A stretch of DNA of 64,000 bases. Source: Candidatus Dormibacteria bacterium. GTDB lineage: Bacteria; Chloroflexota; Dormibacteria; Aeolococcales; Aeolococcaceae. Below, piece by piece: positions 6,999-40,133 of the stretch. Position 1 is the first letter of the stretch, and every line of letters begins with the position of its first letter. Under the pieces are notes generated by a model, which was not told where the DNA came from, did no database searches, and saw only the letters and a program-made list of their open reading frames with translations. The translations under genes were made by a program, and so were the position numbers. The DNA lies in the NCBI GenBank assembly GCA_050011555.1, contig JBEKIT010000002.1:22253-86252 (forward strand), read 5' to 3'.

Positions 6999-7009
6999 CC
7001 CCGGACCGC

Positions 7010-8035: not shown

Positions 8036-8036
8036 C

Positions 8037-8615
8037 TCAGATGTTCTCGATGCTCCAGTCGAAGCCGATGCGCGGGTCGTCCCAGGCGATCCGGCCCTCG
8101 TCGGGGTCGGCGGGATCGTAGGGCTCGGTCACGTAGTAGTTGAGGATGACGTCCTGGAGGCTCAGCACCTGGTAACCGTGGCCCACGAAAGGGGGGATGG
8201 CCACCATCTTGGGTGAGTGCTCGCCGAGGATGATCGACTGGATGCGTCCGGCGGTCGGGGACCCCTCGCGGAGGTCGACGAGAACCACGCGGGCATTCCC
8301 CTGCACGATGTCCCAGTAGTCCCACTGGCGCTTGTGCCAGTGGAAGGCCTTGATCAGCTCCGGCGGGTTCCCACCCCGCGCATACGCGAGGCTGCGGGAC
8401 ATCTGGGCAAACGGCTCGGCGGGGATGAAGGGACGGCCCTCGTCGTCGAGGTCCCCCCGCTTGAGCTGCTCGATGAAGTAGCCGCGCTGGTCGGCGTGCT
8501 TGCGGAAGGTCTTCACCATGACGCCGTCGATGCGCCCCACCCGCTGAGAGGCAGGGACGCTGCTGATGTCTGCGAGCACCCGCTCCATCGACTCGGTGAC
8601 CGCCATCCAGGCCAT
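8037..8615 (-). CDS. rmlC: dTDP-4-dehydrorhamnose 3,5-epimerase
   Basis: The C-terminal 192 aa of the long ORF match the RmlC cupin (..FRKHADQRGYFIEQ..KAFHWHKRQWDYWDIVQG..PPFVGHGYQVL..). ATG at 8615-8613 shares one base with the rmlA stop (TGATG). The upstream 140 aa of the ORF is only the other frame of rmlA. Confidence 0.85.
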   Translation of the reverse strand: MAWMAVTESMERVLADISSVPASQRVGRIDGVMVKTFRKHADQRGYFIEQLKRGDLDDEGRPFIPAEPFAQMSRSLAYARGGNPPELIKAFHWHKRQWDYWDIVQGNARVVLVDLREGSPTAGRIQSIILGEHSPKMVAIPPFVGHGYQVLSLQDVILNYYVTEPYDPADPDEGRIAWDDPRIGFDWSIENI

Positions 8616-9679
8616 CAGCGCAGCTCCACGCGGGACTGGTCGCCCAGCATCAGGCGGTAGGCGCGCGGCCGTTCCGGGGAGGAGCGCACGGTGCACCCCT
8701 TGCCGATCAGCGAGGACTCGATCTTGCCGTCGACGCCGTCGATCACGCTGCCCTCGAGGACGATCGAGTGCTCGATCTCGGACCTCCGGATCGTGCAGTC
8801 GTGGTAGATGGAGGTGAACGGCCCCACGTAGGACTGCTCGATGAGGGTCCCGGACCCGATGATGGCCGGTCCTCGGACCAGGCAGTTGCGGAGCTGCGCC
8901 CCTGTCTGGATCACGACCTTGCCCTCGAGCCGCACGTCCTCGCCGAGGAGGCCCTCGACCCGGGGCGCCAGGGTGTCGAGGATGATCCGGTTGGCCTCCA
9001 GCATGTCCTCGAGGCGCCCGGTGTCCTTCCACCACCCGGTGATGACGTGGGGCACCACCCGGGCTCCGTCATCGATCATCCGCTGGATCGCATCGGTGAT
9101 CTCCAGCTCGCCGCGGGCGCTGAGCTCGATCCGCTCGATGGCGTGGAACACCGCCGGGGAGAAGAGGTAGACGCCCACCAGGGCCAGGTCGCTCCGGGGC
9201 ACCGGCGGCTTCTCGACCAACCGGACCACTCGCCCATCCTCCAGCTCGGCCACCCCGAAGCGCTGGGGCTCGGGGACCCGGGCCAGCAGGATCTCGGCGT
9301 CCGGCTGCAGCCGGCGGAACTCGTCCACGAACTCCGTGATCCCGTCCCGGATGAGGTTGTCGCCCAGATACATGACGAACCGGTCCTCGCCGAGGAAGTC
9401 CCTGGCGATGAGCACGGCGTGGGCGAGGCCGAGCGGCGCCTCCTGGGGGATGTAGGTCACCGAGGCGCCGAAGCGCGAGCCGTCGCCGACCGCCGCTCGC
9501 ACCTCCGGGCCGGTCTCGCCGGTGATGATCCCGATCTCGGTGATGCCGGCCGCGACCACCGCCTCGATCCCGTAGAAGAGGATCGGCTTGTTGGCGATGG
9601 GGACCAGCTGCTTGGCGCTGGTGTGGGTGATCGGCCGGAGGCGGGTGCCCGTGCCCCCGCTCAGGATCAGCGCCTTCAC
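8615..9679 (-). CDS. rmlA: Glucose-1-phosphate thymidylyltransferase, long form with C-terminal left-handed beta-helix
   Basis: MKALILSGGTGTRLRPITHTSAKQLVPIANKPIL..., the canonical RmlA N-terminus. 354 aa with a hexapeptide-repeat-like tail. Confidence 0.9.
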   Translation of the reverse strand: MKALILSGGTGTRLRPITHTSAKQLVPIANKPILFYGIEAVVAAGITEIGIITGETGPEVRAAVGDGSRFGASVTYIPQEAPLGLAHAVLIARDFLGEDRFVMYLGDNLIRDGITEFVDEFRRLQPDAEILLARVPEPQRFGVAELEDGRVVRLVEKPPVPRSDLALVGVYLFSPAVFHAIERIELSARGELEITDAIQRMIDDGARVVPHVITGWWKDTGRLEDMLEANRIILDTLAPRVEGLLGEDVRLEGKVVIQTGAQLRNCLVRGPAIIGSGTLIEQSYVGPFTSIYHDCTIRRSEIEHSIVLEGSVIDGVDGKIESSLIGKGCTVRSSPERPRAYRLMLGDQSRVELR

Positions 9680-18704: not shown

Positions 18705-18720
18705 TACGGGGCGTCCCCAT

Positions 18721-19752: not shown

Positions 19753-19783
19753 GCAGCGCAAGGCCGACTCCGCGAGACATACG

Positions 19784-21868: not shown

Positions 21869-21905
21869 ATGCATCAAACGGGCCGGTAGGCTGCGCCACC
21901 GGGGA

Positions 21906-25114: not shown

Positions 25115-28100
25115 ATGGGTCAGCAGGTGGCGACCGCGAGGTCGGACGGCTACAACAGTGTCGTCGACCGGTGGCGGGGAGGGTACCCCTGCCGCCCGCG
25201 ACGGTCCCGGACGGGTCTGGTGCGCGGGGCCGGGATCGCAGTGGTCCTGGCCAGCCTCACCTCCGGGTTGACATCACCCCAGCGGGTCACCGCCACTTCC
25301 ACGCCGGGGACGGCGTACACCGCGCTGCTGCCCTTCCGGGCCTGCGACACACGGCACGCAACGAGCACCGAGTGCTCCGGCACCACGTCGGACAGCCTCC
25401 TCGGCCAGGGCCAGAGCATGACCTTCCAGGTCACCGGGGTGGGGCCCTCGGGGGACCAGGTGCCCGCGGACGCCGAGTCGGTGGTGCTCAACGTCACCGC
25501 CATCAGCGGCACCGCCGGCACGTTCCTTACCGTCTTCCCGGGCGGCGCCTCCGTGCCCACCGCCTCCAACCTCAACGTCCCGGCCCAGACCAACCAGGCC
25601 AACCTGGTGGTGGTCGCTCTGGGCACCGGGGGTCAGGTCTCCATCTACAACTCGCTGGGCTCCATCAACGTCGCCGTCGACGTCGAGGGTTACTTCGCCG
25701 CTCCCGCGGGGTCCTCCTCGGTCCCCGGCCTCTTCCACCCCATCCCCCCGCTCCGGATCTGCGACACCCGGACCGGCACGGGTACCGCCTGCTCGACCAA
25801 GGGTCCCCTCGGTCCGGGCTACTGGACCAAGGTCGTGGTCTCCGGATGCCCCACCGGCAACCCCTCCTGCGGAGCCTCGGTGCCTGACGACGGGACAGCC
25901 GCGGCGGTGGCCCTCAACCTCACCGCCGTCTCCGGGACCTCCTCCACGTACCTGAGCGTGGTCCCCCCCAACGTCAGTGACAGCTGCCCCAGCGGCGCCC
26001 CGGCCTTCTCCAACCTCAACGTCAACGCCCAGACCAACCTCCCCAACCGGGTGATCGTCCCCCTGGGACCCGACCGGGACGTCTGCGTCTACAACTCCCT
26101 GGGCTCGATCAACTTCATCCTCGACCTCAACGGCTGGTTCGGTACCGGAGGCGAGGCCTCCCCGGGCGCCTACTACTGGGCGGTCACCCCCACCCGTATC
26201 TGCGACACGCGCAGCGCCGCCGCCACGGGCTACAGCACCGAGTGCTCCGGCAGCCCGGTCGGCCCCGCCCAGAGCCTCCCTGTCCAGGTGGCCGGCGTGG
26301 ATGGCATCCCCGCCGCCGGGGGGAGCACCGCGCCGGTGGCGGTGATCGCCAACGTCACGGCGGTGAGCGGCACCTCCTTCACCTACCTCACCCTCTATCC
26401 GGCGGACAGCGTCAGCGTGCCCAACGCCAGTGACCTCAACGTGAGCGCGTACCAGAACACCCCCAACCTCAGCATCGTCCAGCTGGCCGCCGGCGGCGCT
26501 CATCCGGGGGCCCTCGACCTCTTCAACGACCTGGGCACCATCAACGCCATCGTCGACGTCGCCGGGTGGTTCTCGTCCAAGCTCAAGCCGCAGGCCATCA
26601 CCTTCACCAGCTCGGCACCGAGCGATGCGGTGGTGGGCGGCGCGAGCTACACGCCCACGGCATCAGGTGGGGGGTCAGGCAACCCCGTCACTTTCAGCAT
26701 CGACCCCTCCTCGACCGCCGGCTGCGCCCTCTCCTCCGGGGCCGTCTCCTTCACCGCGGTCGGCACCTGCGTGGTCGACGCCAACCAGGCGGGCAACACC
26801 TACTACAGCGCCGCCGCGCAGGTCCAGCAGTCGTTCACGGTGGGGAAGAGGGCGCAGGTCATCAGCTTCACCAGCCCGGCACCCGCGGATGCGCTGGTGG
26901 GTGGTGCCACCTACACCCCAACGGCGACGGCCACCTCGGGCTTGCCCGTGGCCTTCACCATCGACGGGTCGAGCACCTCCGACTGCTCGATCTCCACTGG
27001 GATCGTCTCCTTCCCCGCCACGCCCGGTAGCTGCATCGTCGACGCCAACCAGCCGGGCGGCACCGACTACACCGCCGCCCCTCAAGCCCAGCAGACGTTC
27101 TCGGTCCGACTGACTCAAACCATCAGCTTCACCGCACCATCGAGCGGGACGGTGAAGGGCTCTGACGCCCTGACGCCCACAGCATCATCGGGTCTCACCG
27201 TCGCCCTGACCGTCGACGCCTCGACCACCAACGACGCCTGCTCGCTGAGCGGCGACACCGTGAGCTACCTCCACAGCGGCAGCTGCGTCCTCGACGCCAA
27301 CCAGGCGGGCGACGCCGACCACACCGCCGCCGCCCAAGTCCAGCAGACGATCGCGGTCGGCCAGGCCGCCCAGACGATTGCCTTCACCGCCCCGTCGAGC
27401 GGGATGGTCAATGGCTCCGACGTGCTCGCGCCGACGGCCTCCTCGGGGCTCGCCGTTACCCTCTCCGTCGACGCCTCGACCACCAATGACGCCTGCTCCC
27501 TGGACAGCGACACGGTCGACTACCTCCACACCGGCAGCTGCGTCCTCGATGCCGAGCAGGGGGGAAACATCGACTACAGCTCGGCCAACCAGGTCAAGCA
27601 GACGATTGCCGTGGGCCCGGCCACCCAGACGATCAGCTTCACCGCTCCGTCCAGCGGGACCATGACCGGCTCTGCCACGCTGGCGCCGACGGCATCATCG
27701 GGCCTCATTGTCACGCTGACCGTCGACACCTCGACGACCGACACCGCCTGTTCGCTGAATGGCGACACCGTCAACTACCTCCACACCGGTGACTGTGTCC
27801 TCGACGCCAACCAGGCCGGCGACGCGGACTACAACGCGGCCAGTCAGGTTCAGCAGACGATCACCGTGAGCGCGGCTCAGCTGGTGTTCACCACCGAGCC
27901 CGGTGGCGCCACCGCGGGTTCGCTCCTCAGCCCCCAGCCGGTGGTGACCATCGAGGACGTGCACGGCACCCCCATCACGACCGACATCGGCACGGTGACC
28001 CTGGCGATCACCTCGGGGACCGGAACCTCGGGAGCCCTCCTCGACGCGGGCTGCACCGCGACGACCGCGGCGGGCGTGGCCAGCTTCACCGGCTGCGAGA

Positions 28101-31100
28101 TCGACACGGCCGGCACGGGCTACACCCTCACGGCCACCTATGCCAGTGACGGCCTGACCGGCGCGAGCAGTGCCTTCGGCGTCGGCGCCGGCCCGGCCAG
28201 TCAGCTGGCGTTCACCACCCAGCCCGGCGGCGCCGCCGTGGGCTCACCCTTCATCGATCAGCCGGTGGTGACCATCGAGGACGGCTACGGCAACCCCGCC
28301 ACGAGCGACACCAGCACGGTGATCCTGGCGCTCACGCCAGGGACCGGACCCTCGGGCGCCGACCTCGTGGGCTGCAGCGGGACGACCGTGGCAGGTGTGG
28401 CCACCTTCTCGAGCTGCGAGATCGACACGGTCGGCACCGGCTACACGCTGACGGCCACCGACACCACTGACAGCCTGACCGCCACCAGCAGCAGCTTCCC
28501 TGTCTTCACCAGCTCGGACAGCGGAACCTCGAGCAGCTCCACAGGAACGGCGACGGCCACCACCGACAGCACCACGGCCAGCGCCATGGGGGTGGGGGCT
28601 CTCACCCTGGGCGAGTACGGGTCGGACCCGGTCGGCGCCCCGACCTTCTCCTCGGCGGGGGAGTACTTCGACGTGGCCCTCTCCCCAGGCAACTCATTCA
28701 CCACCGCGACCATCAACGACTGCAACCTGAACGGAGGCGGCACCATCGTGTGGTGGAATCCGGCAGCCTCCGGGGGCAGCGGAGCGTGGCAGCCGGTCTA
28801 CCCGGCACCGAGCTACACCGCCGGTCCTCCGGCGTGCGCTGCGGTGACCCTCACCAGCTCCTCGAGCCCGACGCTGGCGGAGTTGACCGGCACCGTCTTC
28901 GCCGCAGTCACCACGCCCACGCTGTCGTGGTCGCAGCCGCTTCCCATCGAGGGTACGCTGGTCAGCCTCACCTCCGTGTCCTGCCCCTCGGCCGACTTCT
29001 GCGCCGCCGTGGACAACCAGGGCAATGTGCTGACCTACAACGGCACCAGTTGGACCACGCCAACCAGTGAGGAGAGCAACGCCTTCAGCTCGGTGTCCTG
29101 CCCGTCGGATGACTTCTGCGTCGCCGTCGACGGCGGGAGCGGGGGGCACGCTGGAGTGGCGACCTTCAACGGCACTGGCTGGAGCACCTCGACCATCACC
29201 GATTCCGGCTTCCTCACCTCTGTGTCGTGCTTTTCGGCGTCCTTCTGCGCGGCGGTGGACGGCTACGGGAACGCCCTGACCTACGACGGCAGCACCTGGA
29301 CCGCCCCGGCCGATATCGACGGCACCTCGCCCCTCGTCTCAGTGTCCTGCCCCCTGGTGTCGTTCTGCATGGCCGTCGATGTGAGTGGCAATGCTTTCAC
29401 TTCCACCGGCGGCGATTCGTGGACGGCGTCCAGCGGCATCGTCAGCATTGGCAGCGTCAACTCGCTGTCGTGTGTCTCAGCGACCTATTGTATGGCGACC
29501 ACCGCCTACGACACCGGCGTCTACGGCGTGGGAACCAGCCAGGTCTTCAACTTCGATGGCAGCTCCTGGAGCGTGTCGACCACTATCAACGAGCCGGACC
29601 TCTGGACAATTTCCTGCGCGTCGACGACCGTCTGCATGGCGCTGGAATGGGACGGGTACACCCACGAGTTCAACGATGGCATCTGGAGCAGCTCGCCGAC
29701 CACGGTGGACATCGGTAGCGGCGCTCCCTCGGTCTCGTGTGCCTCAGCGTCCTTCTGCGCAGCCGTGGACAACATCGGTCGGGCGCTCACCTTCGACGGC
29801 AGCTCCTGGACATCGCTGAGCAACATCGATGGCATTGCCGCGGGTCTGAGCGCGGTGTCGTGTCCCTCGATGACATTCTGCGCCGCCACCGACTACGACG
29901 GGCGCGCTCTGACCTATAACGGCACCAAGTGGACCACGCCGACCCCCATCGACGGCGTGGGCGCGGGTCTCAGCTCGGTGTCGTGTGCATCCTCGTCATT
30001 CTGTTTGGCGGTGGATGCGGAAGGGAACGCGATTACCTTCAACGGCAGTGGCTGGGGCGCTCCGCAGAGCATTGGCAACGGTGCCGCGCTCAGTTCGGTG
30101 TCCTGCCCCACAGATCAGTTCTGCGCCGCCGCCGACGGTGGGGGTCCTGAGGGCAATATGCTGACCTGGGTTGGGAGTACCGGTAAGTGGAGCACCACCC
30201 CACTCAGCGGTACGGGCCCCTTCAGCTCGGTGTCGTGCCCCTCGGCTGACTTCTGCGTCGCCGTGGACGGTGGTGGTGGTGGTGGCGGCGGTGGTGGTGC
30301 GAACGTGGCGGTCTGGAACGGTACCACCTGGACCACCTCGCTCAACCCAGATCCCAACTGGCTCAGCTCGGTCTCATGTTCCTCGACGTCATTCTGCGCG
30401 GCGGTGGACGGCCTGCTCAGTGCCTTAACGTTCGACGGCAGCTCCTGGACCACCCCGGTCACCATCGACAGCACCGGTGGCCTCGAATCGGTTTCCTGTC
30501 CCGTGGATGAGTTCTGCGCCGCGGTGGACGGCTACGGTAACGTCCTGACCTTTGACAGCGGCACCTGGAGCACGAAGACCCCCGTCACCTCCTGGGGCCT
30601 GCAAACTGTCTCCTGCCCCTCTGTCTCCTTCTGCATGGCGCTCGATGGTGCCGGTGACGTCCTCTACGGCACGGCCAACGGCACGACTCAGATGATCAAC
30701 TTCAGCAGTCTGGCACCGACAGATGCGGTGGTTGGCGGCGCCACCTACACGCCGACGGCCACGGCGACGTCGGGTTTGCCGGTGATCCTCACCATCGATC
30801 CCTCGAGCAGCTCGGGCTGCGCGATTGCCGACGGGGTCATCTCCTTCCCGACCACGGCGGGCACCTGTGTCATCGACGCCAATCAGCCGGGGAACGCCGA
30901 CTACAGCGCGGCAGCCCAGGTTCAGCAGTCGTTCGAGGTGGGGAAGGAGTCGCAGACCATCAGCTTCACCAGCACGGCACCGACCGATGCGGTGGTCGGT
31001 GGTGCCACCTACACGCCAACCGCAACGGCCACGTCGGGCTTGGCAGTGACGGTCAGCCTGGATGGCACGTCGGTCGGATGCACCCTCTCCGCTGGGGTGG

Positions 31101-32146
31101 TGTCCTTCACGGCTGCGGGCACGTGTCTCCTCGATGCCAACCAGGCTGGCAACCTCAACTACAGCGCCGCGCCCCAGGTGCAGCAGCCAGTGACAGTGAT
31201 CGCAGGTTGGATGCAGTTGAGGCCCGCCACTTCTCCCTCGGCAAGAGCTGATGCATCGATCACAACCCTGACCGCCGGCCCCGACACCGGGGATGTGATG
31301 TTGTTCGGCGGTTCCGATGACAGGAGTGGCTACCTTGCCGACACCTGGGTCTTCAACGGTAGCACATGGACGCAACTCAGCCCTTCCACCTCGCCCCCTG
31401 GAAGACTTGGCGCATCGATGGCGACCTTGACCGCCGGCCCTGACGCCGGGGATGTGGTGTTGTTCGGCGGATGGGATTACAGCAGTGGCATCCTCGCAGA
31501 TACGTGGCTCTTCAACGGCAGCACCTGGACACAACTCAGCCCACCCACGTCACCTCTTGCGCGAGGTAAGGCCTCAATGACGACCTTGACCACGGGCCCT
31601 GACGCCGGGGATGTGGTGCTATTCGGCGGCTGCGACAACAGTGGGGGCTACCTCGGCGATACGTGGGTCTTCGACGGCAGCACCTGGACGCAACTCAGCC
31701 CACTCACCTCGCCCCCTGTGAGACAAGACGCGTCGATGGCAACCGTGAATGCCGGCCCCGACGCTGGCGACGTGATCCTGTCCGGCGGCTATGGTGACAC
31801 TGGGTACCTCTGGGACATCTGGGTCTTCAACGGCAGCACCTGGACGCAACTCAACTCACCCACCTCCTTCCCTGCGAGAACTGCGGCGTCAATGGCCGCC
31901 GTCAGTGCCGGCCCTGATGCCGGTGACGTGGTGCTGGTCGGCGGGTATGACAGTGGCTACCTCGGCGACACTTGGATCTTTGACGGCAGCACCTGGACGC
32001 AACTCAGCCCAGCCACCTCTCCCCCTGGCAGAGATCGGGCGTCGATGGCAACCTTGAACGCTGGCCCCGACGCCGGGGATGTGGTGTTGTTCGGCGGTTG
32101 GGGTGGTAGTGACTACGTTGGTGACACCTGGATTCTCGGCAACTGA
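25115..32146 (+). CDS. Giant secreted multi-repeat protein (2343 aa). N-terminal triplicated module (subfamily 1), then about 7 Ig-like two-Cys repeats of ~90 aa, 2 'QPVVTIED' repeats, a Ser/Thr linker, about 16 'SCPSxxFCxAVD' repeats, and about 6 Kelch-like repeats.
   Basis: Continuous ORF. The N-terminal TM/signal is ..GAGIAVVLASLTSG... The module triplet is in residues ~60-480 and ends ..VAGWFSSKLKP. All repeat classes are directly visible in the translation. Gly11 run at about residue 1720. Confidence 0.75.
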   Translation: MGQQVATARSDGYNSVVDRWRGGYPCRPRRSRTGLVRGAGIAVVLASLTSGLTSPQRVTATSTPGTAYTALLPFRACDTRHATSTECSGTTSDSLLGQGQSMTFQVTGVGPSGDQVPADAESVVLNVTAISGTAGTFLTVFPGGASVPTASNLNVPAQTNQANLVVVALGTGGQVSIYNSLGSINVAVDVEGYFAAPAGSSSVPGLFHPIPPLRICDTRTGTGTACSTKGPLGPGYWTKVVVSGCPTGNPSCGASVPDDGTAAAVALNLTAVSGTSSTYLSVVPPNVSDSCPSGAPAFSNLNVNAQTNLPNRVIVPLGPDRDVCVYNSLGSINFILDLNGWFGTGGEASPGAYYWAVTPTRICDTRSAAATGYSTECSGSPVGPAQSLPVQVAGVDGIPAAGGSTAPVAVIANVTAVSGTSFTYLTLYPADSVSVPNASDLNVSAYQNTPNLSIVQLAAGGAHPGALDLFNDLGTINAIVDVAGWFSSKLKPQAITFTSSAPSDAVVGGASYTPTASGGGSGNPVTFSIDPSSTAGCALSSGAVSFTAVGTCVVDANQAGNTYYSAAAQVQQSFTVGKRAQVISFTSPAPADALVGGATYTPTATATSGLPVAFTIDGSSTSDCSISTGIVSFPATPGSCIVDANQPGGTDYTAAPQAQQTFSVRLTQTISFTAPSSGTVKGSDALTPTASSGLTVALTVDASTTNDACSLSGDTVSYLHSGSCVLDANQAGDADHTAAAQVQQTIAVGQAAQTIAFTAPSSGMVNGSDVLAPTASSGLAVTLSVDASTTNDACSLDSDTVDYLHTGSCVLDAEQGGNIDYSSANQVKQTIAVGPATQTISFTAPSSGTMTGSATLAPTASSGLIVTLTVDTSTTDTACSLNGDTVNYLHTGDCVLDANQAGDADYNAASQVQQTITVSAAQLVFTTEPGGATAGSLLSPQPVVTIEDVHGTPITTDIGTVTLAITSGTGTSGALLDAGCTATTAAGVASFTGCEIDTAGTGYTLTATYASDGLTGASSAFGVGAGPASQLAFTTQPGGAAVGSPFIDQPVVTIEDGYGNPATSDTSTVILALTPGTGPSGADLVGCSGTTVAGVATFSSCEIDTVGTGYTLTATDTTDSLTATSSSFPVFTSSDSGTSSSSTGTATATTDSTTASAMGVGALTLGEYGSDPVGAPTFSSAGEYFDVALSPGNSFTTATINDCNLNGGGTIVWWNPAASGGSGAWQPVYPAPSYTAGPPACAAVTLTSSSSPTLAELTGTVFAAVTTPTLSWSQPLPIEGTLVSLTSVSCPSADFCAAVDNQGNVLTYNGTSWTTPTSEESNAFSSVSCPSDDFCVAVDGGSGGHAGVATFNGTGWSTSTITDSGFLTSVSCFSASFCAAVDGYGNALTYDGSTWTAPADIDGTSPLVSVSCPLVSFCMAVDVSGNAFTSTGGDSWTASSGIVSIGSVNSLSCVSATYCMATTAYDTGVYGVGTSQVFNFDGSSWSVSTTINEPDLWTISCASTTVCMALEWDGYTHEFNDGIWSSSPTTVDIGSGAPSVSCASASFCAAVDNIGRALTFDGSSWTSLSNIDGIAAGLSAVSCPSMTFCAATDYDGRALTYNGTKWTTPTPIDGVGAGLSSVSCASSSFCLAVDAEGNAITFNGSGWGAPQSIGNGAALSSVSCPTDQFCAAADGGGPEGNMLTWVGSTGKWSTTPLSGTGPFSSVSCPSADFCVAVDGGGGGGGGGGANVAVWNGTTWTTSLNPDPNWLSSVSCSSTSFCAAVDGLLSALTFDGSSWTTPVTIDSTGGLESVSCPVDEFCAAVDGYGNVLTFDSGTWSTKTPVTSWGLQTVSCPSVSFCMALDGAGDVLYGTANGTTQMINFSSLAPTDAVVGGATYTPTATATSGLPVILTIDPSSSSGCAIADGVISFPTTAGTCVIDANQPGNADYSAAAQVQQSFEVGKESQTISFTSTAPTDAVVGGATYTPTATATSGLAVTVSLDGTSVGCTLSAGVVSFTAAGTCLLDANQAGNLNYSAAPQVQQPVTVIAGWMQLRPATSPSARADASITTLTAGPDTGDVMLFGGSDDRSGYLADTWVFNGSTWTQLSPSTSPPGRLGASMATLTAGPDAGDVVLFGGWDYSSGILADTWLFNGSTWTQLSPPTSPLARGKASMTTLTTGPDAGDVVLFGGCDNSGGYLGDTWVFDGSTWTQLSPLTSPPVRQDASMATVNAGPDAGDVILSGGYGDTGYLWDIWVFNGSTWTQLNSPTSFPARTAASMAAVSAGPDAGDVVLVGGYDSGYLGDTWIFDGSTWTQLSPATSPPGRDRASMATLNAGPDAGDVVLFGGWGGSDYVGDTWILGN

Positions 32147-32285: not shown

Positions 32286-34079
32286 TCAGGCTGAGGACCT
32301 GGATGCACGCGCCTGATCGCGGCGGCGCGGGATCCGGAGCGTGAGCGGCCGCGGCCAGGCGACGTGCGGACCGAGGAAGGCGTCGCGCAACCGGTCCTCC
32401 GCGCCCCAGCGGAGGCAGAAGCGGCGGTAGTCGTCCTCGGGCGCGAGGCTCCCCCGGCTGGAACCCTCGTCGTGCTGGAGCTCGGCGAGCGGGGTCATCA
32501 CCACGCGCCATCCCGCCCGCCAGAGGCGGAGGCAGAAGTCGACGTCGTTGAAGGCCACGGGGAGGCTCTCGTCGAAGCCGCCGACCGCGTCCCAGGCCTC
32601 GCGGCGAACCATCATGCAGGCGCCGGTCACGGCGCTGCAGGCCCGCGCTGCCGACCAGCCGAGATCGAGGTTCGCGGCCACCCGGCCGATGCCGATGCCA
32701 ATGCCCTCGTGCTGTACTCGTCCGTCGGCGAAGACGAGTCGCGCCCCCACGGCGCCGACGCCGGGCCGCCCGCACCACTCGAGCATCGCCTCCAGCCACC
32801 CGGGGGTGCGCACCACGGTGTCGTTGTTGAGGAGGACGACGTAGGGGGTCTCGGTGGCCTCGACCCCCCGGTTGACGATGGCCGAGAAGTTGAAGTCACC
32901 CGGGTGGGGGACGACGTGCGGCAGCCGGCCCAGGTAGGCCAGGGTCCCCGGCTCGCGGCTGCCGTTGTCGACGATGACCACCCGACGGCGTGGGTGGGTG
33001 CTAGTCGCCACGCTCTCGAGGCAGCGGCGGAGCAGCTCATGCCGGTCCCGCGTGGGGATGACGATGGCGACCTCCGGGAGAGATCCGGGGTCGAACCGAA
33101 CATCGGTGACCCCGGGTTCCCGACCCGTCTCCACCCGGGCACCGGGATCGCGGGCGCGCAGCCAGGCCTCGAGGCACCGCCGCCGCACCGGCGCCGGCGC
33201 CTCGTGGGCGGAGCCCGCAGGTCGGGAGAGGGCCACCACCGGGAGGTGGCGCGGGTCGCGCAGGTGGGCCGATGCGCGCAGCAGCTCGGCATAGACCTCG
33301 GTGGGGGCGTCACTCTCGCTCCACCCCCCGGCGGCCTCCAGCAGGGCGGCCCGCTGGAGTACCAGGCCTCCCCCGACCTGGTCGCGACCCATGAGCAGCT
33401 CCGGTGACCAGCCGTAGGCCAGGTGCGGATGGTGGCGCCGGCCCCGGCCGTCCATGTCGTCCCAGTCGGTGTACGCGAGGTCGCAGTCAGGCGCCGCCCG
33501 GAGGGCCTCCGCCACCTCCACCAGGCCGTGGCGGGTCACCCGGCACCCGGGGGCGATCACGGCAACGAACTCCCCGGGCTCGGGCCGCGCCGCCTCCAGG
33601 AGGGGGGTCGCCCAGTGGGCGCCGGGCTGCCGTGGCGTCCAGCTGATGCGCGCGTCCTCGAGCGGCCCGGAGCCGTCCGGATCGGCCCAGGCCGCGGCGC
33701 GCCACCACGGGTAAGGCTGTGCCTGGAGGGAGAGCAGGGTCGCGCGGATCGCAGCCTGCTCACCGGGCGCGGAGGGGAGGAGGAGCACCACGGAGATGTG
33801 CGACTCCCAGGACTGGGCGGCGGCGGCCAGCCGGCGCAGCGCGCGGGCGTCCGGCTCTGTCCGGGCCCGCCAGCGGCGGTACTGGACCTCGAGGGGCACG
33901 CGGCTGGGGCCCGTCCCACGCCGTGGGGAAGGGCGCGACCGCCCCAGGCGGTCGAGCAGGTCGGCCGCCGCTTCTCGACGCCACAGGCTAAGCGCGCGGC
34001 GCATCCTGCCCGGCGCCGAGCGGGCCCCGCCGGGACGCTGGGGAGCGCTCACCGCACCCCGAGGCGTCGAGCCACCCAC
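32286..34079 (-). CDS. Two-domain GT2 family glycosyltransferase
   Basis: C-terminal GT2-A fold (VAIVIPTRDRHELLRRCLESV..VVIVDNGS..LLNNDT..) with DxD-like motifs. An N-terminal second GT2-like half. Overlaps the upstream gene by 31 nt. Confidence 0.7.
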   Translation of the reverse strand: MGGSTPRGAVSAPQRPGGARSAPGRMRRALSLWRREAAADLLDRLGRSRPSPRRGTGPSRVPLEVQYRRWRARTEPDARALRRLAAAAQSWESHISVVLLLPSAPGEQAAIRATLLSLQAQPYPWWRAAAWADPDGSGPLEDARISWTPRQPGAHWATPLLEAARPEPGEFVAVIAPGCRVTRHGLVEVAEALRAAPDCDLAYTDWDDMDGRGRRHHPHLAYGWSPELLMGRDQVGGGLVLQRAALLEAAGGWSESDAPTEVYAELLRASAHLRDPRHLPVVALSRPAGSAHEAPAPVRRRCLEAWLRARDPGARVETGREPGVTDVRFDPGSLPEVAIVIPTRDRHELLRRCLESVATSTHPRRRVVIVDNGSREPGTLAYLGRLPHVVPHPGDFNFSAIVNRGVEATETPYVVLLNNDTVVRTPGWLEAMLEWCGRPGVGAVGARLVFADGRVQHEGIGIGIGRVAANLDLGWSAARACSAVTGACMMVRREAWDAVGGFDESLPVAFNDVDFCLRLWRAGWRVVMTPLAELQHDEGSSRGSLAPEDDYRRFCLRWGAEDRLRDAFLGPHVAWPRPLTLRIPRRRDQARASRSSA

Positions 34080-35203
34080 GCGGCAGCTCGGCGTCCCCCC
34101 GGCACGCGACCGGTGAGGGCGCGCAAGCCCTCCATCCGGGCGTGCTCGCCGCGCAGCTGGTGCAGCAGCTCGTCACCGAGCGCGACGGCGGCCTGGAGTG
34201 CGCCGACCTGGACCCGCAACGCCTCGACCTCGGTGGGCGGCGCGGATGGCCTCGGGTCCGCGGCCTCGGGCTGGAGCGCCGGCAGCGGGCGGCGCTCGGC
34301 ACGGAGGATCGCGGCGGCCACCGCCGCGTCGCGGTCTCCGTCGGCCGGCGGCGGATCGAAGTCCCGCAGGGAGTCGCCCCACTTGGCGAGAAAGCGCCTG
34401 CCGCTGCGGACGGCCACCAGGGCTCGCAGGTCGTCGGGCAGGCTGGCGCCTCCGTGGTGAACGAGACGCGCGTTGGGCGCGTACAGGGTGCGGAACCCCC
34501 GGGCGCGGAGCGACAGGCAGAGGTCGACGTCCTCGAAGTAGGCGGGGAAGTACCTCTCGTCGAAGCCGCCGACCGCGCCCCACGCGTCGCGGGTGACCAG
34601 CAGGCCGCAGCCGGAGCAGTAGTCTGTTTGCCGGACACGGTTGTAGCTGTCTGACCCTGCGGGTAGCCCGTGGCCCACCTGATGGGTTCCCGCGTCTCGC
34701 CACAGGATGGATCCCGCCTCCTGGAGGCTCCCGTCGGGCGAGAGCAGCCGGCTGCCGACCGCTCCCGCCCGCGGCTCGCTCTCCGCCACCTCGACGAGGG
34801 CCCGCAGCCAGCCCGCCTCGACCTCGGTGTCGTCGTTGAGGAAGACCAGGTGACGGCCGCGCGCAAATCGGGCCCCCCAGTTGCACCCACCCGCGAAACC
34901 GAGGTTGACGGGTGAGGGGACGACGACCAGCGAGTCCAGGCCGGCCAGCGCGGCCAGGGTCTCCACCGGGGTGCCGTTGCCCACGACCACGACCTCGTGC
35001 GACGGCGCCTCGTGGAGCTTCGCCAGGGAGGCCAAGCAGGCGACGAGGCGATCGACGTCGGCCATCACCAGGATGACCACGGAGGCGATCGGGGAGTCGG
35101 CGACTCGCCTCCCCCGCCACACCAGGTCGGCGGCCGGTGAGGGCGGGGCCGGCCGGCCACCCGGGCGGACGCCGCCCGCCGCCACGCCCCGGGGCTCAGT
35201 CAT
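34049..35203 (-). CDS. GT2 family glycosyltransferase
   Basis: ..ASVVILVMADVDRLVACLASL..VVVVGNGTP..VFLNDDTEV..YFEDVDLCLS.. GT2 signature. ATG at 35203 lies 2 nt after the upstream stop (35196-35198). The longer frame to 35488 is rejected. Confidence 0.7.
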   Translation of the reverse strand: MTEPRGVAAGGVRPGGRPAPPSPAADLVWRGRRVADSPIASVVILVMADVDRLVACLASLAKLHEAPSHEVVVVGNGTPVETLAALAGLDSLVVVPSPVNLGFAGGCNWGARFARGRHLVFLNDDTEVEAGWLRALVEVAESEPRAGAVGSRLLSPDGSLQEAGSILWRDAGTHQVGHGLPAGSDSYNRVRQTDYCSGCGLLVTRDAWGAVGGFDERYFPAYFEDVDLCLSLRARGFRTLYAPNARLVHHGGASLPDDLRALVAVRSGRRFLAKWGDSLRDFDPPPADGDRDAAVAAAILRAERRPLPALQPEAADPRPSAPPTEVEALRVQVGALQAAVALGDELLHQLRGEHARMEGLRALTGRVPGGRRAAAWVARRLGVR

Positions 35204-38200
35204 GCCGCTGGCGGCCCTCGGCCGGACGCTGGCTTCGGTGGCTGCCCGCGGCCCCGACGACGAGGACGTCGGCGGCTCCCACGCCCTCCGGGTCGGTGAG
35301 GAAGTCGTAGATGCCGCCGAGCGCGGCATCCCAGTCGGAGTGGAACTCCGCGATGTCCTTGAGCGCCTGTCCGGCCAGGCGGCGGCGCAGAGGCGGGTTG
35401 ACCGCCATCGCCTCCAGCCTGTCCACCAGGCCGTCCACCGTTCGCGGTGCCAGCAGGCAGTTGACGCCGTCCCGCAGCAGCCAGCCACCGGCGGGGTTGT
35501 CGAGGCAGACCACCGAGGTCCCGCACGCCATCAGCTCGAGAGGAAGGTATGACGGGTGTTCGGAGACGGTGAGGGCCAATCCCATGTCGCAGCTCCGGTA
35601 CAGGTCCCCGGTCTCCGCGTAGTCGAGCAGGCCGAGGTGTGCGATCGCGGGCAGCCTGTCGCCTGATTCCACCGGGGCCCACGAGCCCGCCGCGACGATC
35701 CGGATCCGGTCCCCCATCCGATCCTTCAGCTCGTGCAGGGCGGCCTCGGCCAGCTCCCAGCAGTTGCGCCAGTGTCCGGGCCGCGCGTAGACGAAGAGGG
35801 TGACGGGGCCCTCGGGGCTCCGGCGCACCCGGTGGCGCGCGTGGAAGACGGCACCGTCGACGGCCGGGGTGAAGTGGGTGGCGGTGCCGCCGTAGGAGCG
35901 GTAGAGGCGGGCCAGGTTCTCGGTGTTGCAGATCCCGTAGAGACCGAGCCGGTAGCTCTCCTCCGCCAGAGCGTAGATGGTGCCGGCGGGGTAGAACATC
36001 GGCTCGAAGTCCTGCACCAGGTAGAAGCGCCGGCCCGCCCCTGGGTGCACCGCAACCTGGTAGGCGGTCGTCCAGAGGGTCGCGATGGCGGCGTCAGCCG
36101 CGGGCACGCGGGCCAGCTGCGCGTCGGTCTCTGCGATGAAGGTCGGTGCGGAGGCCAGCCCGGGGAATGCCGCCGCGATGCCGGTGCGGATGTACTCCTC
36201 GGGCCCGAGCCCGCAGACGACGAAGCGGTTCTCGACGGCGTGATCGGCGGCGAGCTTGGTGGCCAGGCGCAGGGCGGTATTGATGCCGCCGTAGAAGGGG
36301 CTGTCGATCCCGGGTATGAACCAGTTGACGGTTCGGGGGGCGGCCGGTGCGGAGTGGGCCCGGTGCTGGGCCTTGACCGCATCCACCTCGGCGGGGTCGA
36401 TCCGGCAGCGTGAGGCGAGCGCGGCAGCCTGAGCGAGGTCGTCCTGTGAATGCCAGATCGAGAGCCGGCGTCCGACGTGGGGGGCCGCCAGCTCAACGGC
36501 CGCCGGCTCGCCCGGCCGGCGGAGTCGTGGCGCGGTGCTCTCGACACTGAGACGGGGATGGAAGTACGGGTCTCCTGAGCGAATCCAGCGTTGGTAGCGC
36601 CACCACGACACGAAGTAGTCGGAGCGCGGTACGGTCGGGCCACGCGTCGCCGACTCCAGGTGGGTGAGGGCGTTGCTCGGCACGCAGAGGCTGCGCAGCC
36701 CGCGCTGCCGGAGGGCGAGGCCCAGGGCCACGTCGCTGCCACAGAGGGTGAATTCCTCGTCGAAGCCGCCCACGCTCTCGAAGTTGTCACGCCGGACGGC
36801 GACGCAGGCGGCGGTGACGGCGAGGACGTCCCGGTACCAGGAGCTGGAGCCAAGCAGGGTGGACGAACCGGGGCGCAGCCCCGCGAAGAGGTGGCCCGCG
36901 AAACCGGTGAGCCCGAGGATCACGCCGCCATGTTGGATCCGGCCCTGGGGATCGATGAGCTGGATGCCCACCGAGCCCACCTCGGTGACCGTCGTCCAGC
37001 CCACCAGCTTCTCGAGCCAGCCGGGATCTCCGGTGACCCGGATGTCGTCGTTGAGGAAGAGCAGCACCCCCCCGGTGGCCGCTCGCGCACCGGCGTTGTT
37101 GACCGCTGAGTAGTTGAACGGCCGATCCCACCAGATGACGGTGGGGTGGAGCGGCCGCCCCTCGTACCAGCTCTCGTTCTCGGGGGTCCGCGCCCCGTTG
37201 TCGACGATCACCGCCTCCAGTTCCGGATAGCCGGAGCGAGCCAGTCCGTCGAGCAGGGGGCCGACCAGTGCCCGGTTGTGGCGGGTGGGGACGATCACGC
37301 TCACCCGCGGCCAGGAGGACAGGTCCCAGTTGACACGGACGGCGTCGCCACGCCACCGAGCCGTGGCGGGCCAGGAGCGGCGCTCGAGGGCCTGGCCGAC
37401 CACCGTGACGGCGTCGCCGGGTGGGATCGCGGCGGTGGTCCGAACACGGCCGAGCACCTGAGGGATGTGGCTCACCCGATCGCCCGCCATCTCGCAGCGG
37501 AGGAGGAGGTCCCAGAGCTTCGCCCTCCCCGCCTCTTGGCGGACGCCGCCCGCGACCAGGGCGCGCGCGGACCGCAGGGCGAAGCTCCGGTCGAGATAGG
37601 GTGCCGACAGCAGGACCTCGGGGGACCAGGACGGTCGGAGCCGTGGGCGCCAGCGACCCCCGCCGCCGCTGGCCTCGTCGTCCCAGCTGACCAGATCGAT
37701 CAGTGGGTCACGGTGGACGCTGGCGGCGACCTGGTAGAGGCAGCTCGGTGCCAGGGTGTCGCCCGCCTCGAGGAAGATGACCATCTCCCGGTGCGGGATC
37801 TCCGCGAGCACAGCATTGATCCCCCCGGCACCGAGCCCACCATGATGGTGTTCGACGCGCGCACCGCCGGAGTGACCAGACTGAGAGCCGCGATGCTTGG
37901 TCGGGTGCAGCACGGCCGCCCGCCAGTGCGGCCAGGTCTGACCCTCCAGTGAACGCAGGGTGGCGGCCAGCGAACCCCCGGATCGCGCCAGCACCAGCAC
38001 CGAGAACGCCTGGGGACGCGCCACCCCCAGGGCCGCCAGGTGCTGGAGCGCCGCCTCGGCGGTGACGAACACCCCGGGGTCGACCGGGGCGGCGGACTCG
38101 ACCGCTCTCGAGGGTGGTGCTGAGGGCTCTGTGCGCCGCCCCAGGGCTCGCTTGGCGACCCGGCGCCGGCGCGACCCCGGCGGGAGCAGTCGGCGCGCCA

Positions 38201-39008
38201 CGCCGCTGGCGGCCGCCGCCGCCCGGTAGGTGGTGGACCCGTGGACCGCGGCGAGCATCCGCCGGGCTTCGTCCAGCTCCGGGCCGCCACCACCCTCGCC
38301 GGACTGGGTGCCCGCCAGCTGCCGAGCGCGGGCGAGCTCGGCGCGAACCTGGCGCAGCTCGGCGAGCAGGACCTCCTCGGCGGTCGGAGCCCTTCCAGGC
38401 TCGGGAGCGACCTCGGCGGCGTACAGGTCTGAGCGCCGTTCCCCGGAAGCGGCGAGGATGACACGGTTGGGCGGCACGGTCCCGCGCACCCCGCACTGCC
38501 AGCGGCTGTTCTCACCCGTCTTGTAGTAGACGGGCGCCCAGGTCGCGGTGTCGACCGGTCTGATGTCGATGAGTCCGGCGCGCTCGAAGAGGCGGGTTAG
38601 CGACTCGATGTCGTGGCACCAGCGGTGGTGACTGGGCTGGACATACGAGTAGACGAACGAATCGTTGAGGATGACGTTGTCCACCTCGCCGTCCAGGTAC
38701 GCGCGGAAGATCGCGCGCATGTCCGGGGTCACCGCGGACACCGTGGTCCCGGCCGCCAGCCGCTCCGCCACGGTTATCAGGAGCACCACCGCGTCATCCA
38801 GGGTGAGGTGCTCGATGAGGTGCCCCATGTACACCTCGCTGATGCTCTCCGCGTGCTCCCGGATGAACTCGACGGCGTCGCCGTGCACGTCGGCGCGCAC
38901 ATCGGGATCGCTGTCGACGTTGACCCAGCCATCGAGGTACAGCGGCCCGCAGCCGAGGTTGACCCTCACCGCCTGGCCGCCGCCACGCGCGTCGAAGCTC
39001 CGAGCCAC
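35196..39008 (-). CDS. Trifunctional glycan-synthesis enzyme: N-terminal class I SAM methyltransferase, a central GT2 domain, and a C-terminal GT-B (GT4, WsaF-like) domain. Its architecture resembles WsaE/WsaF-type rhamnosyltransferases.
   Basis: MT motif VNLGCGPLYLDGWVNVD. GT2 region VSVIVPTRHNRALV..VIVDNGA..FLNDDIRV. C-terminal WFIPGIDSPFYGGINTALRLA...EHPSYLPLELMACGTSVV is a GT-B fold. 1270 aa. Confidence 0.7.
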   Translation of the reverse strand: MARSFDARGGGQAVRVNLGCGPLYLDGWVNVDSDPDVRADVHGDAVEFIREHAESISEVYMGHLIEHLTLDDAVVLLITVAERLAAGTTVSAVTPDMRAIFRAYLDGEVDNVILNDSFVYSYVQPSHHRWCHDIESLTRLFERAGLIDIRPVDTATWAPVYYKTGENSRWQCGVRGTVPPNRVILAASGERRSDLYAAEVAPEPGRAPTAEEVLLAELRQVRAELARARQLAGTQSGEGGGGPELDEARRMLAAVHGSTTYRAAAAASGVARRLLPPGSRRRRVAKRALGRRTEPSAPPSRAVESAAPVDPGVFVTAEAALQHLAALGVARPQAFSVLVLARSGGSLAATLRSLEGQTWPHWRAAVLHPTKHRGSQSGHSGGARVEHHHGGLGAGGINAVLAEIPHREMVIFLEAGDTLAPSCLYQVAASVHRDPLIDLVSWDDEASGGGGRWRPRLRPSWSPEVLLSAPYLDRSFALRSARALVAGGVRQEAGRAKLWDLLLRCEMAGDRVSHIPQVLGRVRTTAAIPPGDAVTVVGQALERRSWPATARWRGDAVRVNWDLSSWPRVSVIVPTRHNRALVGPLLDGLARSGYPELEAVIVDNGARTPENESWYEGRPLHPTVIWWDRPFNYSAVNNAGARAATGGVLLFLNDDIRVTGDPGWLEKLVGWTTVTEVGSVGIQLIDPQGRIQHGGVILGLTGFAGHLFAGLRPGSSTLLGSSSWYRDVLAVTAACVAVRRDNFESVGGFDEEFTLCGSDVALGLALRQRGLRSLCVPSNALTHLESATRGPTVPRSDYFVSWWRYQRWIRSGDPYFHPRLSVESTAPRLRRPGEPAAVELAAPHVGRRLSIWHSQDDLAQAAALASRCRIDPAEVDAVKAQHRAHSAPAAPRTVNWFIPGIDSPFYGGINTALRLATKLAADHAVENRFVVCGLGPEEYIRTGIAAAFPGLASAPTFIAETDAQLARVPAADAAIATLWTTAYQVAVHPGAGRRFYLVQDFEPMFYPAGTIYALAEESYRLGLYGICNTENLARLYRSYGGTATHFTPAVDGAVFHARHRVRRSPEGPVTLFVYARPGHWRNCWELAEAALHELKDRMGDRIRIVAAGSWAPVESGDRLPAIAHLGLLDYAETGDLYRSCDMGLALTVSEHPSYLPLELMACGTSVVCLDNPAGGWLLRDGVNCLLAPRTVDGLVDRLEAMAVNPPLRRRLAGQALKDIAEFHSDWDAALGGIYDFLTDPEGVGAADVLVVGAAGSHRSQRPAEGRQRHD

Positions 39009-39017
39009 CTCATCGGC

Positions 39018-40133
39018 CTATTCTGACCTGTCCGATCGGGGGGGCGCTGAACCCCTGCCTCCGGGTCGGGGGTCATGAGCGGCGTTCGTCAGCCGCTCCC
39101 GCACCGAACGGATAGTCCCGTCAAGCCCTCTCTCCGCCAGCTTGGTGACCTCGCGCGCCAGCGCGGCAGTGAGGCGCCTCCGCCGGGTACCGGCGGGCGC
39201 GGCTCGGCGCACCGCGGCACGGCACATGACCGCGACGCGGATCGCCGCGCTCGCCTGCAGCTCGCGATACTCGTCCACCACCGCGGACTGGGACTGGAGC
39301 CGGGCCTGGAGCTCCTCGAGCAGGCTGCCCGGGTCGGCGAGCCCGGGATCGCGCCGCCCGCCGTCCGCCGAGGGGTCGCGTGCCGTCCTGCCGGCCTGAT
39401 CCCCGGGGGGGAGCGGTGGGAGGTCATCGATGCCCTTCCCAAAGATGAAGATGTACTCGTCGTCCTCGCCCGGGCGGGATGCAGCGAACTCCAGCAACTC
39501 CAGGGTGACACCCGCCTCGGCTCGCGCCGCCGCGATCACCTCGAGGAAGCCCTCTGGGCGCCACACGTGGAAATGGATGCTGTAGTCCATCCCCATCAGC
39601 TCCCGAACACGATCCGGGCCGGTGGGCACGCCGGCATCGATCATCCACTCGACGAGGGGCTCCGCGCGTTCCACCCACTCGGCGTAGTGCACCTCGCGGG
39701 TCGCGTCGGTGCCGGTCCGATACTCGCCAGCCACGTGATCGATCGGAGTCAGATCCCTGGCCCGGTCGAAGGTCAGGCGCGGATCGGGCAGCGCCACGTA
39801 GAGAATCCCCCCGGGTCGCAGCACACGCGCCATCTCCTGCAAGCCGCGGATCGGGTTCTCCAAGTGCTCCAAGAGGTGGTTGGCGATTACGAAGTCCTGC
39901 GAGCCGTCGCCGAAGCGCGAGAGGTCCTCGGCGTCGCCGATCAGGTCGACGGGGACCAGCGACTGGTCGCCCAGCTCCGGGTAGTGGCGCTTGAGATCCT
40001 CCGCATTGAAGCGGTCCACGTAGTGAACCGTCGCCGCGGGAGGTACGGCCAGAGGGTTGTGCAGAGCCCCGATCTCGATGCCGGAACCTTGCAGCCATCG
40101 GGCGGCGTGGCTCCGTTTGGCGGTGACCTTCAC
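39018..40133 (-). CDS. Class I SAM-dependent methyltransferase with a C-terminal coiled-coil-like extension
   Basis: ..GSQDFVIANHLLEHLENPIRGLQEMARVLRPGGILYVALPD.. (methyltransferase type 11). GTG start at 40133. The stop lies 10 nt upstream of the next gene start. Confidence 0.7.
   Translation of the reverse strand: MKVTAKRSHAARWLQGSGIEIGALHNPLAVPPAATVHYVDRFNAEDLKRHYPELGDQSLVPVDLIGDAEDLSRFGDGSQDFVIANHLLEHLENPIRGLQEMARVLRPGGILYVALPDPRLTFDRARDLTPIDHVAGEYRTGTDATREVHYAEWVERAEPLVEWMIDAGVPTGPDRVRELMGMDYSIHFHVWRPEGFLEVIAAARAEAGVTLELLEFAASRPGEDDEYIFIFGKGIDDLPPLPPGDQAGRTARDPSADGGRRDPGLADPGSLLEELQARLQSQSAVVDEYRELQASAAIRVAVMCRAAVRRAAPAGTRRRRLTAALAREVTKLAERGLDGTIRSVRERLTNAAHDPRPGGRGSAPPRSDRSE

Follow-up and report, generated by a model that had tools for sequence, protein, structure and literature searches.

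The 64,000-nucleotide stretch of a Candidatus Dormibacteria contig analysed here (JBEKIT010000002.1, positions 22,253 to 86,252; the whole of it is called the window below) carries, as the longest open reading frame (ORF) of its region, an uninterrupted gene for a 2343-aa protein at 25115..32146 (+), which we call the giant. On balance, the giant appears to be a secreted, non-enzymatic binding protein associated with the cell envelope, in which three jelly-roll modules near the N-terminus (the A-triple) would act as an anchor, several classes of repeats as a stalk, and β-propellers as heads. Such a surface role fits because the protein combines a signal-like N-terminus, Cys pairs, a stalk-then-propeller order and a triplet shared with other proteins, and because its gene adjoins a rhamnose/glycosyltransferase locus. 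The original prediction, made from the letters of the sequence, had proposed a secreted candidate surface adhesin or an S-layer-like protein; the first half of this proposal fits the evidence, if indirectly, whereas the second, for a protein with neither an SLH nor a CWB2 domain, gains no specific support.

How would such a protein work? In the proposed model, (i) the giant would be exported through its N-terminal signal; (ii) the A-triple, at the mature N-terminus, would bind a wall glycopolymer non-covalently and hold the protein on the surface, with a rhamnose-containing glycan made by the flanking synthesis genes as a possible ligand; (iii) the stalk would consist of seven B and two C repeats together with a linker rich in Ser and Thr that may be glycosylated; and (iv) a double 7-bladed, Cys-clamped propeller and a 6-bladed Kelch propeller would be the distal ligand-binding heads, probably for glycans. 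A bolder proposal, which we advance tentatively and regard as possible rather than probable, concerns the anchor itself: the A-triple may be an undescribed, obligatorily triplicated jelly-roll module that binds wall polymers, a functional analogue of SLH and CWB2 domains which displays dozens of enzymes and adhesins in Dormibacteria and many Actinobacteria. Its ligand would be made by co-located rhamnose, GT2 and methyltransferase genes, and the giant would be its largest client, with the anchor placed N-terminally.

The gene itself is real and intact. An assembly artefact is ruled out because the exact protein is recorded on 15 contigs from different sources and independent assemblies (NCBI, JGI, ENA); over a compared 27-kb overlap, every base of the window is the same as in JGI 3300039310 Ga0427949_0000003, a contig of 425,843 bp. 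Some gene calls start at a GTG at codon 36, giving 2308-aa database versions, but a Shine-Dalgarno (GGAGG) that lies 7 nt ahead of the ATG favours the 2343-aa form, the length given in the original prediction. The carrier is an uncultured soil or peat bacterium, Candidatus Dormibacteria, and the NCBI record (MGD0370308.1) reads “kelch repeat-containing protein” of a Candidatus Dormibacteria bacterium. The giant is of a known kind, a large modular repeat-rich surface protein already auto-annotated as a Kelch protein. Most of it, however, lies beyond that name: about 85% of the protein is not seen by Pfam and NCBIfam. Searches of Pfam (E up to 10), NCBIfam and PDB sequences give the non-Kelch segments no real match; hits to HlyD_D23, NQRA_N, Gln-synt_N, MCM and LCE are at chance level and were left unused. 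No full-length orthologue was found outside the protein’s own 90% cluster, the best matches covering only the B (23-24%) or C (11%) arrays.

From the N-terminus, the giant reads signal-like region, A-triple, B1-B5, C1-C2, linker, D, E1-E14, B6-B7 and Kelch (Table 1). All five repeat classes of the original prediction are present, and its N-terminal module triplet, two QPVVTIED (C) repeats, Ser/Thr-rich linker and about six Kelch repeats were found as described. The remaining classes need revision. The Ig-like (B) repeats are indeed seven, each of ~85 aa with two Cys and an end of the form (V/L/I)DANQ...QVQQ, but they are split five plus two instead of forming one contiguous array, and the range given for them, 26566-28450, takes in the QPVVTIED repeats (the true positions are 26588-27868 and ~30692-31198). 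The SCPSxxFCxAVD (E) repeats, put at about 16, are exactly 14 according to a hidden Markov model (HMM), and the single-copy domain D had been overlooked.

A triplet module with many partners

Within aa 1-60, an Arg-rich n-region (RPRRSRTG) is followed by an 18-residue hydrophobic stretch (LVRGAGIAVVLASLTSGL) and a possible cleavage site (VTA/TS), from which export of the giant by the Sec or Tat pathway, with cleavage at VTA/TS, may be predicted. The A-triple comes next. Each of its modules starts with xR(I/A)CDTR and ends with D(V/L)xG(Y/W)F; no Pfam, NCBIfam or PDB sequence match to the region was found in the giant, and no Pfam match in 8 other members of the family. Structure prediction of the repeat classes, suggested together with the original prediction, has been rewarding here: the AlphaFold2 (AF2) model (predicted local distance difference test, pLDDT, 94.6; predicted template-modelling score, pTM, 0.92) contains three all-β domains in one compact body, and these scores indicate that the three domains pack in a defined way. 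From the pTM together with the copy-number rules described below, a pseudo-threefold packing could be proposed.

The A-triple is anything but rare. A profile of the seven triplets of the window, run against 1.84 billion sequences, retrieves 29,044 representatives (at 50% identity) at E<=1e-3 and 8,988 at E<=1e-30. Its copy number follows a strict rule: among 131 newly fetched representatives that match the single-module HMM, exactly three modules per protein are found in 120 and six in 4. The triple occupies the extreme C-terminus in 101 cases, a position just behind an N-terminal signal peptide in 16, and an internal one in 3; because the unit is also found N-terminally and mid-protein, a C-terminal sorting signal like the C-terminal domain of the type IX secretion system is ruled out. 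Partner domains include Rv2525c-like glycoside-hydrolase-like domains, G1, S53 and M10 peptidases, GH25, GH18, PKD, TIG, and PQQ and NHL propellers. Such a set of mutually unrelated partners is what one would expect of a localisation module, less so of a substrate-specific carbohydrate-binding module (CBM).

Which known system does this resemble? Exactly three tandem copies that act as a unit, at either terminus, on diverse secreted proteins are typical of SLH and CWB2 anchors, and the A-triple shows the same pattern: as in the Cwp proteins of C. difficile and the SLH proteins of Bacillus and related genera, it is a fixed three-module unit on diverse secreted proteins, among them proteases, wall hydrolases and adhesins. 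In C. difficile, the polysaccharide PSII is bound by a trefoil of three CWB2 domains, which are not interchangeable and can sit at either terminus, and the locus for PSII synthesis adjoins the cwp genes (PMC5842191). The A-triple genes of the window are likewise clustered beside a putative wall-glycopolymer synthesis locus. The SLH fold is helical and the CWB2 fold is of the toprim type; unlike either, the A-triple is built of ~140-aa all-β jelly rolls, and its hosts are Dormibacteria and Actinobacteria. As it shares neither sequence nor fold with CWB2, the A-triple does not belong to that family; in agreement, Pfam finds no homology to SLH (PF00395) or CWB2 (PF04122) in the A region of the giant and 8 other members.

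The giant is not the only protein nearby with this module. Six other ORFs of the window, all with signal-like N-termini, end in an A-triple at the extreme C-terminus, 52-75% identical to that of the giant (52-74% for the five at 9867-24908). A stretch of 34 kb holds all seven A-triple genes, set between rml genes on one side and a block of GT2, WsaF-like and methyltransferase genes on the other.

Stalk and propeller heads

Behind the A-triple, five B repeats fall into two subtypes, B1-B2 and B3-B5; the two that follow the E array, B6-B7, belong to the B1/B2 subtype. Their sequences suggest an Ig-like fold, although the Pfam profile Big_3_5 (PF16640) matches neither B1-B5 nor B6-B7, and Big_3_5 domains in homologues adjoin B arrays and do not overlie them. 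Much longer arrays of both stalk repeats occur in giant proteins of many phyla: B arrays have a median of 14 copies and a maximum of 24 (19 in the passenger of a Caulobacter autotransporter, P0144, and 17-18 in other giant proteins), and C arrays a median of 18 and a maximum of 26 (P0151 is an example). Given that an autotransporter and further giant surface proteins contain such long arrays, both kinds of repeat are of a type usual in surface fibres. The C repeats are followed by the Ser/Thr-rich linker, a possible site of O-glycosylation in view of its composition and the neighbouring glycosyltransferase genes, and then by domain D. D has no Pfam or PDB match; its homologues occur in proteins with E arrays (P0286, P0332, P0260 and P0312; E 1e-33 to 1e-39), where D is placed 3′ of the propellers, whereas in the giant it precedes them.

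The E array models as two tandem 7-bladed β-propellers. The AF2 model, made from an alignment of 104 homologues, has a pLDDT of 89.5 and a pTM of 0.86, and Foldseek matches it to double 7-bladed propellers (2ymu, 1nr0 (Aip1) and 4nsx (Utp21); E 1e-21 to 1e-17), with a template-modelling (TM) score of ~0.44 and 10-13% identity to the solved structures. In its predicted fold, the array resembles the Tectonin (lectin) propellers as well as those of the 7+7 kind (2ymu, Aip1 1nr0); unlike the best-matching double propellers, which are of WD40 type, it has a C-x5-C pair of Cys in each blade. That the heads are propellers is further supported by E-array homologues that score above the Tectonin cut-off of Pfam, and by the strong Kelch matches described below. 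Of the Cys columns in the alignment of 104 homologues, 17 never vary and most others are conserved at >=90%, which suggests extracytoplasmic disulfides. Within the array lies the Gly10 tract, an enlarged loop of blade 11 that coincides with a segment of pLDDT<50 (model residues 443-445); the corresponding loops of blades 2 and 10 are Gly-rich too.

The 14-repeat unit is kept as a block across homologues, of which there are at least 3,826, mostly ~1000-aa proteins of Actinobacteria. Since 33 of 120 E-array homologues have an A-triple at one end, the A-triple plus 14-blade propeller looks like a common ~1000-aa architecture, with the giant as an enlarged form. Flexivirga alba P0267 (989 aa, “uncharacterized protein”) shares with the giant the A-triple, the same 14-repeat array and the same type of neighbourhood; unlike these A-triple plus 14-blade proteins, the giant has B, C, the linker and D inserted, and B6-B7 and Kelch added at the end.

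The six Kelch repeats form the only part of the giant with a Pfam match: PF24681 scores 107 bits (cut-off 50; E 9.9e-31) and PF13418 83 bits (cut-off 21.6; E 1.1e-23), while the NCBIfam search of the protein finds nothing. Six units with the GG doublet and D-x-W motif, as in bacterial Kelch proteins, make this segment a C-terminal six-bladed propeller; unlike in those proteins, it amounts to only 13% of the whole, and the NCBI name is silent on the rest. A Tox-HDC match over 35 aa inside Kelch repeat 5 (22.6 bits, cut-off 21), in which no stretch passes alone, is best regarded as a repeat-summing artefact and not as a toxin domain.

The order of a proposed anchor, Ig-like repeats and distal binding domains is that of “periscope”-type adhesins and autotransporter passengers. 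In contrast to these proteins, the stalk of the giant is short (7 B and 2 C repeats), its units are diverged and no length variation was seen; the giant also has no β-barrel, and it lacks LPXTG or any other known anchor. Its last residues, ...DYVGDTWILGN, contain neither an LPXTG motif nor a C-terminal membrane anchor.

Anchor, lectin, lattice or variable array

If the protein has no recognised anchor, what would argue that the A-triple is one? Part of the answer comes from gene neighbourhoods. A-triple genes lie in or next to glycopolymer loci in the window and at two others. In Flexivirga alba (L087; JBHSWH010000001.1 1453398-1476367), two genes for an A-triple joined to a 14-blade array (A3-E14 genes) flank genes for DUF6020, a methyltransferase, DUF2304, two GT2 enzymes and an A-triple sedolisin; the likeness of this locus to the window, across phyla, suggests functional linkage or cassette transfer. 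At L090, an A3-E14 gene adjoins TarS-like, TagF-like and IspD-like genes of the teichoic-acid type. The A-triple and the 14-blade propeller therefore recur together, and beside glycopolymer genes, in two phyla.

A number of observations weigh against an anchored surface protein. Two of the five loci examined (L091 and L092) carry A3-E14 genes with no glycan genes nearby, and at the syntenic locus of a related Dormibacteria contig (L088, 2.25 Mb) neither the giant gene nor the sedolisin nor the GT2/WsaF-like block is present. No homology between the A modules and a known wall-binding domain could be detected. Foldseek gives the A-triple weak matches, with a TM of <0.25 for the whole triple; these comprise jelly-roll proteins, a CBM22 tandem, an F-lectin, C1q/TNF-like proteins, a single-chain TNF trimer and triple-jelly-roll capsid proteins. 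Such similarities of the modeled modules (to CBM22, F-lectin, C1q/TNF-like fibre tips and viral jelly rolls) would suit an outward-facing lectin equally well. As for the heads, the E array of the giant matches no propeller or lectin family in Pfam, with no Tectonin hit even at E<=10; the gathering score of Tectonin (PF19193) is exceeded inside the arrays of four E-array homologues, at 31-38 bits versus a cut-off of 30, so that a relationship to Tectonin is distant at best.

The strongest competitor to a surface-bound giant is a released one: a lectin-like or scaffold protein in which the A-triple would serve as a carbohydrate-binding head that faces outward, pseudo-trimeric in a single chain like C1q/TNF-type fibre tips, or like a CBM, and would direct secreted enzymes and the giant to external polymers or to the walls of other cells. 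It can draw on the structural matches of single A modules, among them a fibre tip of Bdellovibrio (Bd2133; 8ok3, prob 1.0, TMt 0.60), the CBM22 tandem, F-lectin, the TNF trimer and phage C1q-like and tail-fibre proteins; on partners (GH25, GH18 and Rv2525c-like domains) and a neighbouring CHAP gene whose products could act on foreign cells; and on the two A3-E14 loci that lack nearby glycan genes. Yet several mutually unrelated proteases, and propellers without enzymatic function, are also among the partners, an unusual set for a substrate-directed CBM; the A-triple is highly conserved among the paralogues of one genome, at the 52-75% identity given above; and in two phyla, loci for glycopolymer synthesis contain clusters of A-triple genes. 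We consider release unlikely, while taking it seriously.

Could the giant instead be part of a lattice? As an S-layer protein or component it would self-assemble, and the adjacent rml and WsaF-like genes would build its O-glycan. The flanking gene set recalls the clusters that make S-layer glycans (slg) or rhamnan wall polysaccharides: its rmlA/B/D, rmlC-like, GT2, WsaF-like and methyltransferase genes resemble slg clusters (PMC2943079; PMC3898925), in which, in Geobacillus, WsaE and WsaF build a methyl-capped rhamnan (PMC2943079). The Ser/Thr-rich linker would also be in keeping with a glycosylated S-layer protein. Against this, a stalk-and-propeller build of 2343 aa is unlike known S-layer subunits, SLH and CWB2 domains are lacking, and no oligosaccharyltransferase or Wzm/Wzt gene was recognised in the window; moreover, absence from the syntenic L088 and the lack of an orthologue beyond the 90% cluster are unexpected for a core envelope layer. 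An S-layer role is accordingly improbable.

The repeats raise a question of their own: do they change in number? The original prediction described the Ig-like array as a near-tandem DNA repeat prone to copy-number change. Tandem Repeats Finder (TRF) does report arrays of 255 bp x3.3 at 27024-27862 (76% matches) and of 159 bp x5.4 at 31249-32102 (74% matches), as well as the GGT tract, but the units have diverged. Nucleotide identity is 59-78% among B units (longest exact shared run 22 nt), 67-78% among Kelch units (29 nt, the maximum of the gene), 57% on average among E units (21 nt), 78% between C1 and C2 (25 nt) and 57-62% among A units (19 nt); the gene contains neither near-identical DNA repeat units nor a long perfect microsatellite. 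The tract has the predicted pattern, (GGT)5-GGC-GGC-(GGT)3; it encodes ten and not eleven Gly residues, and spans 30269-30298 instead of 30268-30300. Although it is the longest perfect triplet repeat of the window, it consists of five perfect units before the GGC GGC interruption. In the gene as a whole, only 19% of Gly codons are GGT, against 8 of 10 in the tract, which makes slippage in the past its probable origin.

A comparison between strains, proposed at the outset as a check for repeat-number polymorphism, gives no sign of it. Of the 26 members of the 90%-identity cluster, 15 were aligned, and none has an indel in any repeat array or in the Gly tract; they are 0-2 substitutions apart, with the exception of P0130. 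Six fetched loci, which differ from the window by 0-11 nt per 27 kb, likewise have no indel and a constant tract length, and one of them shows a synonymous GGC>GGT change within the tract. This is a weak test, because the copies are nearly clonal. P0130 (HAW11903.1, “Chloroflexi bacterium”, partial) differs in aa 1-60, indel columns included, and matches in the remainder; this gene was probably called incompletely where a contig ends, which would account for its N-terminal difference. A rapidly length-variable contingency or “periscope” surface gene, whose Ig-like array and GGT tract change copy number, is very improbable: TRF picks up the arrays and the triplet tract, the excess of GGT points to past slippage and B and C copy numbers differ greatly between proteins of different organisms, but with units at 57-78% identity, exact repeats of at most 29 nt, an interrupted tract and arrays without indels, hypervariability is unsupported. 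To judge from their divergence, the repeats are ancient structural ones, not a fast-evolving length-variable array.

The surrounding locus and its meaning

Around the giant gene (Table 1), the remaining domains of the six A-triple neighbours are sedolisin with TIG, Rv2525c-like glycoside-hydrolase-like, a PQQ-type propeller, and TIG with unassigned regions. Two of these neighbours, at 21645-24908 (+) and 9867-12626 (-), contain ~45-50-aa “C....DCWAVG” repeats which, judged by their scores with the E-blade HMM (E 1.2e-3 and 1.8e-6, respectively), are distant relatives of the E blades; this would bring the Cys-clamped propeller proteins in one locus to three. The first of the two ORFs overlaps the 3′ end of 19727-21868; gene callers place its start further downstream, which gives products of 989 or 865 aa.

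How stable is the locus? The related contig L088, set against 4.7-51 kb of the window, shares its flanks (rmlDBCA on one side, the suf operon on the other), and its counterpart of the rmlC-like ORF carries PF00908. Near its rml genes are four A-triple enzymes (GH18, TIG, Rv2525c-like and G1 peptidase). This gene content implies that part of the locus varies between species, and the region behaves, on present sequences, as a variable surface-protein island. A search of genome contigs for synteny via the neighbouring GT2 gene found one Dormibacteria contig of 2.9 kb (L007) and otherwise unrelated GT2 genes; the syntenic loci compared here are those of homologues.

Other features of the window are noted for completeness. 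Five high-GC3 (GC content at third codon positions) ORFs have no Pfam match at E<=1e-4: three of 462, 588 and 442 aa (145-4681, +) and two of 201 and 542 aa (43755-46013); the first three, which adjoin the glycan genes, could code for membrane or export components that escaped recognition. SufB (48736-51159, +) carries, between two SUFBD_core halves, an intein with a LAGLIDADG homing endonuclease (Intein_splicing, LAGLIDADG_3), and the syntenic SufB of L088 has the same intein. A 1071-aa ORF at 56319-59534 (+), with adenylate/guanylate cyclase, AAA_16 ATPase and MalT-like TPR parts, is a large signalling regulator that seems unrelated.

Table 1. Positions in the window of the modules of the giant and of neighbouring genes
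Feature	Residues (aa)	Position	Strand	Description and basis
Shine-Dalgarno		25103-25107	+	GGAGG, 7 nt 5′ of the ATG at 25115; read from sequence
Signal-like N-terminal region	1-60	25115..25294	+	read from translation
A-triple	64-491	25304..26587	+	three ~140-aa jelly-roll modules (predicted); HMM built from modules
A1		25304-25723	+	A-module HMM
A2		25724-26164	+	A-module HMM
A3		26165-26587	+	A-module HMM
B1-B5	492-918	26588..27868	+	five ~85-aa two-Cys repeats, Ig-like (predicted); unit comparison
C1-C2	921-1135	27875..28519	+	two ~108-aa QPVVTIED repeats; 60% aa identity
Ser/Thr-rich linker	1133-1158	28511..28588	+	TSSDSGTSSSSTGTATATTDSTTASA; read from translation
D	1167-1279	28613..28951	+	~113-aa single-copy domain; homologues in E-array proteins
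E1-E14	1284-1862	28964..30700	+	fourteen ~40-aa SVSCPSxxFCxAVD...G..W blades (predicted); HMM, exactly 14 units
Gly10 tract	1719-1728	30269..30298	+	(GGT)5(GGC)2(GGT)3; enlarged loop, blade 11
B6-B7	~1860-2028	30692..31198	+	two repeats of B1/B2 subtype, 3′ of E repeats; unit comparison
Kelch repeats	2031-2343	31205..32143	+	six repeats of 50-53 aa each; Pfam and unit comparison
GT1-like gene, rmlD, rmlB-like, rmlC-like ORF, rmlA		4693..9679	-	Pfam (rmlC-like: ORF only)
A-triple gene		9867-12626	-	A-module HMM
A-triple gene		12635-15925	+	A-module HMM
A-triple gene		15942-18602	+	A-module HMM
CHAP-domain gene		18688-19752		among A-triple genes
A-triple gene		19727-21868	+	A-module HMM
A-triple gene		21645-24908	+	A-module HMM
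GT2, GT2, 1270-aa GT2 + WsaF-like glycosyltransferase fusion, methyltransferase		32286..40133	-	directly downstream of the giant
Pro-kumamolisin (sedolisin)-TIG protein		40296-43598	-	C-terminal A-triple 75% identical to that of the giant; HMM and Pfam

Taken alone, the giant gene encodes an ordinary large modular surface protein, of a sort common in soil metagenomes; its value lies in the modules that it exposes. Two of its building blocks, the A-triple and the 14-blade Cys-clamped propeller, are very large unannotated families. Should the A-triple prove to be a wall anchor, it would show how surfaces are decorated in Dormibacteria, an uncultured lineage of phylum level, and in many Actinobacteria, and the surface proteome of its carriers would become predictable from sequence. 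Since the same modules also occur in the named, apparently isolate-derived genome of Flexivirga alba, this hypothesis may be directly testable.

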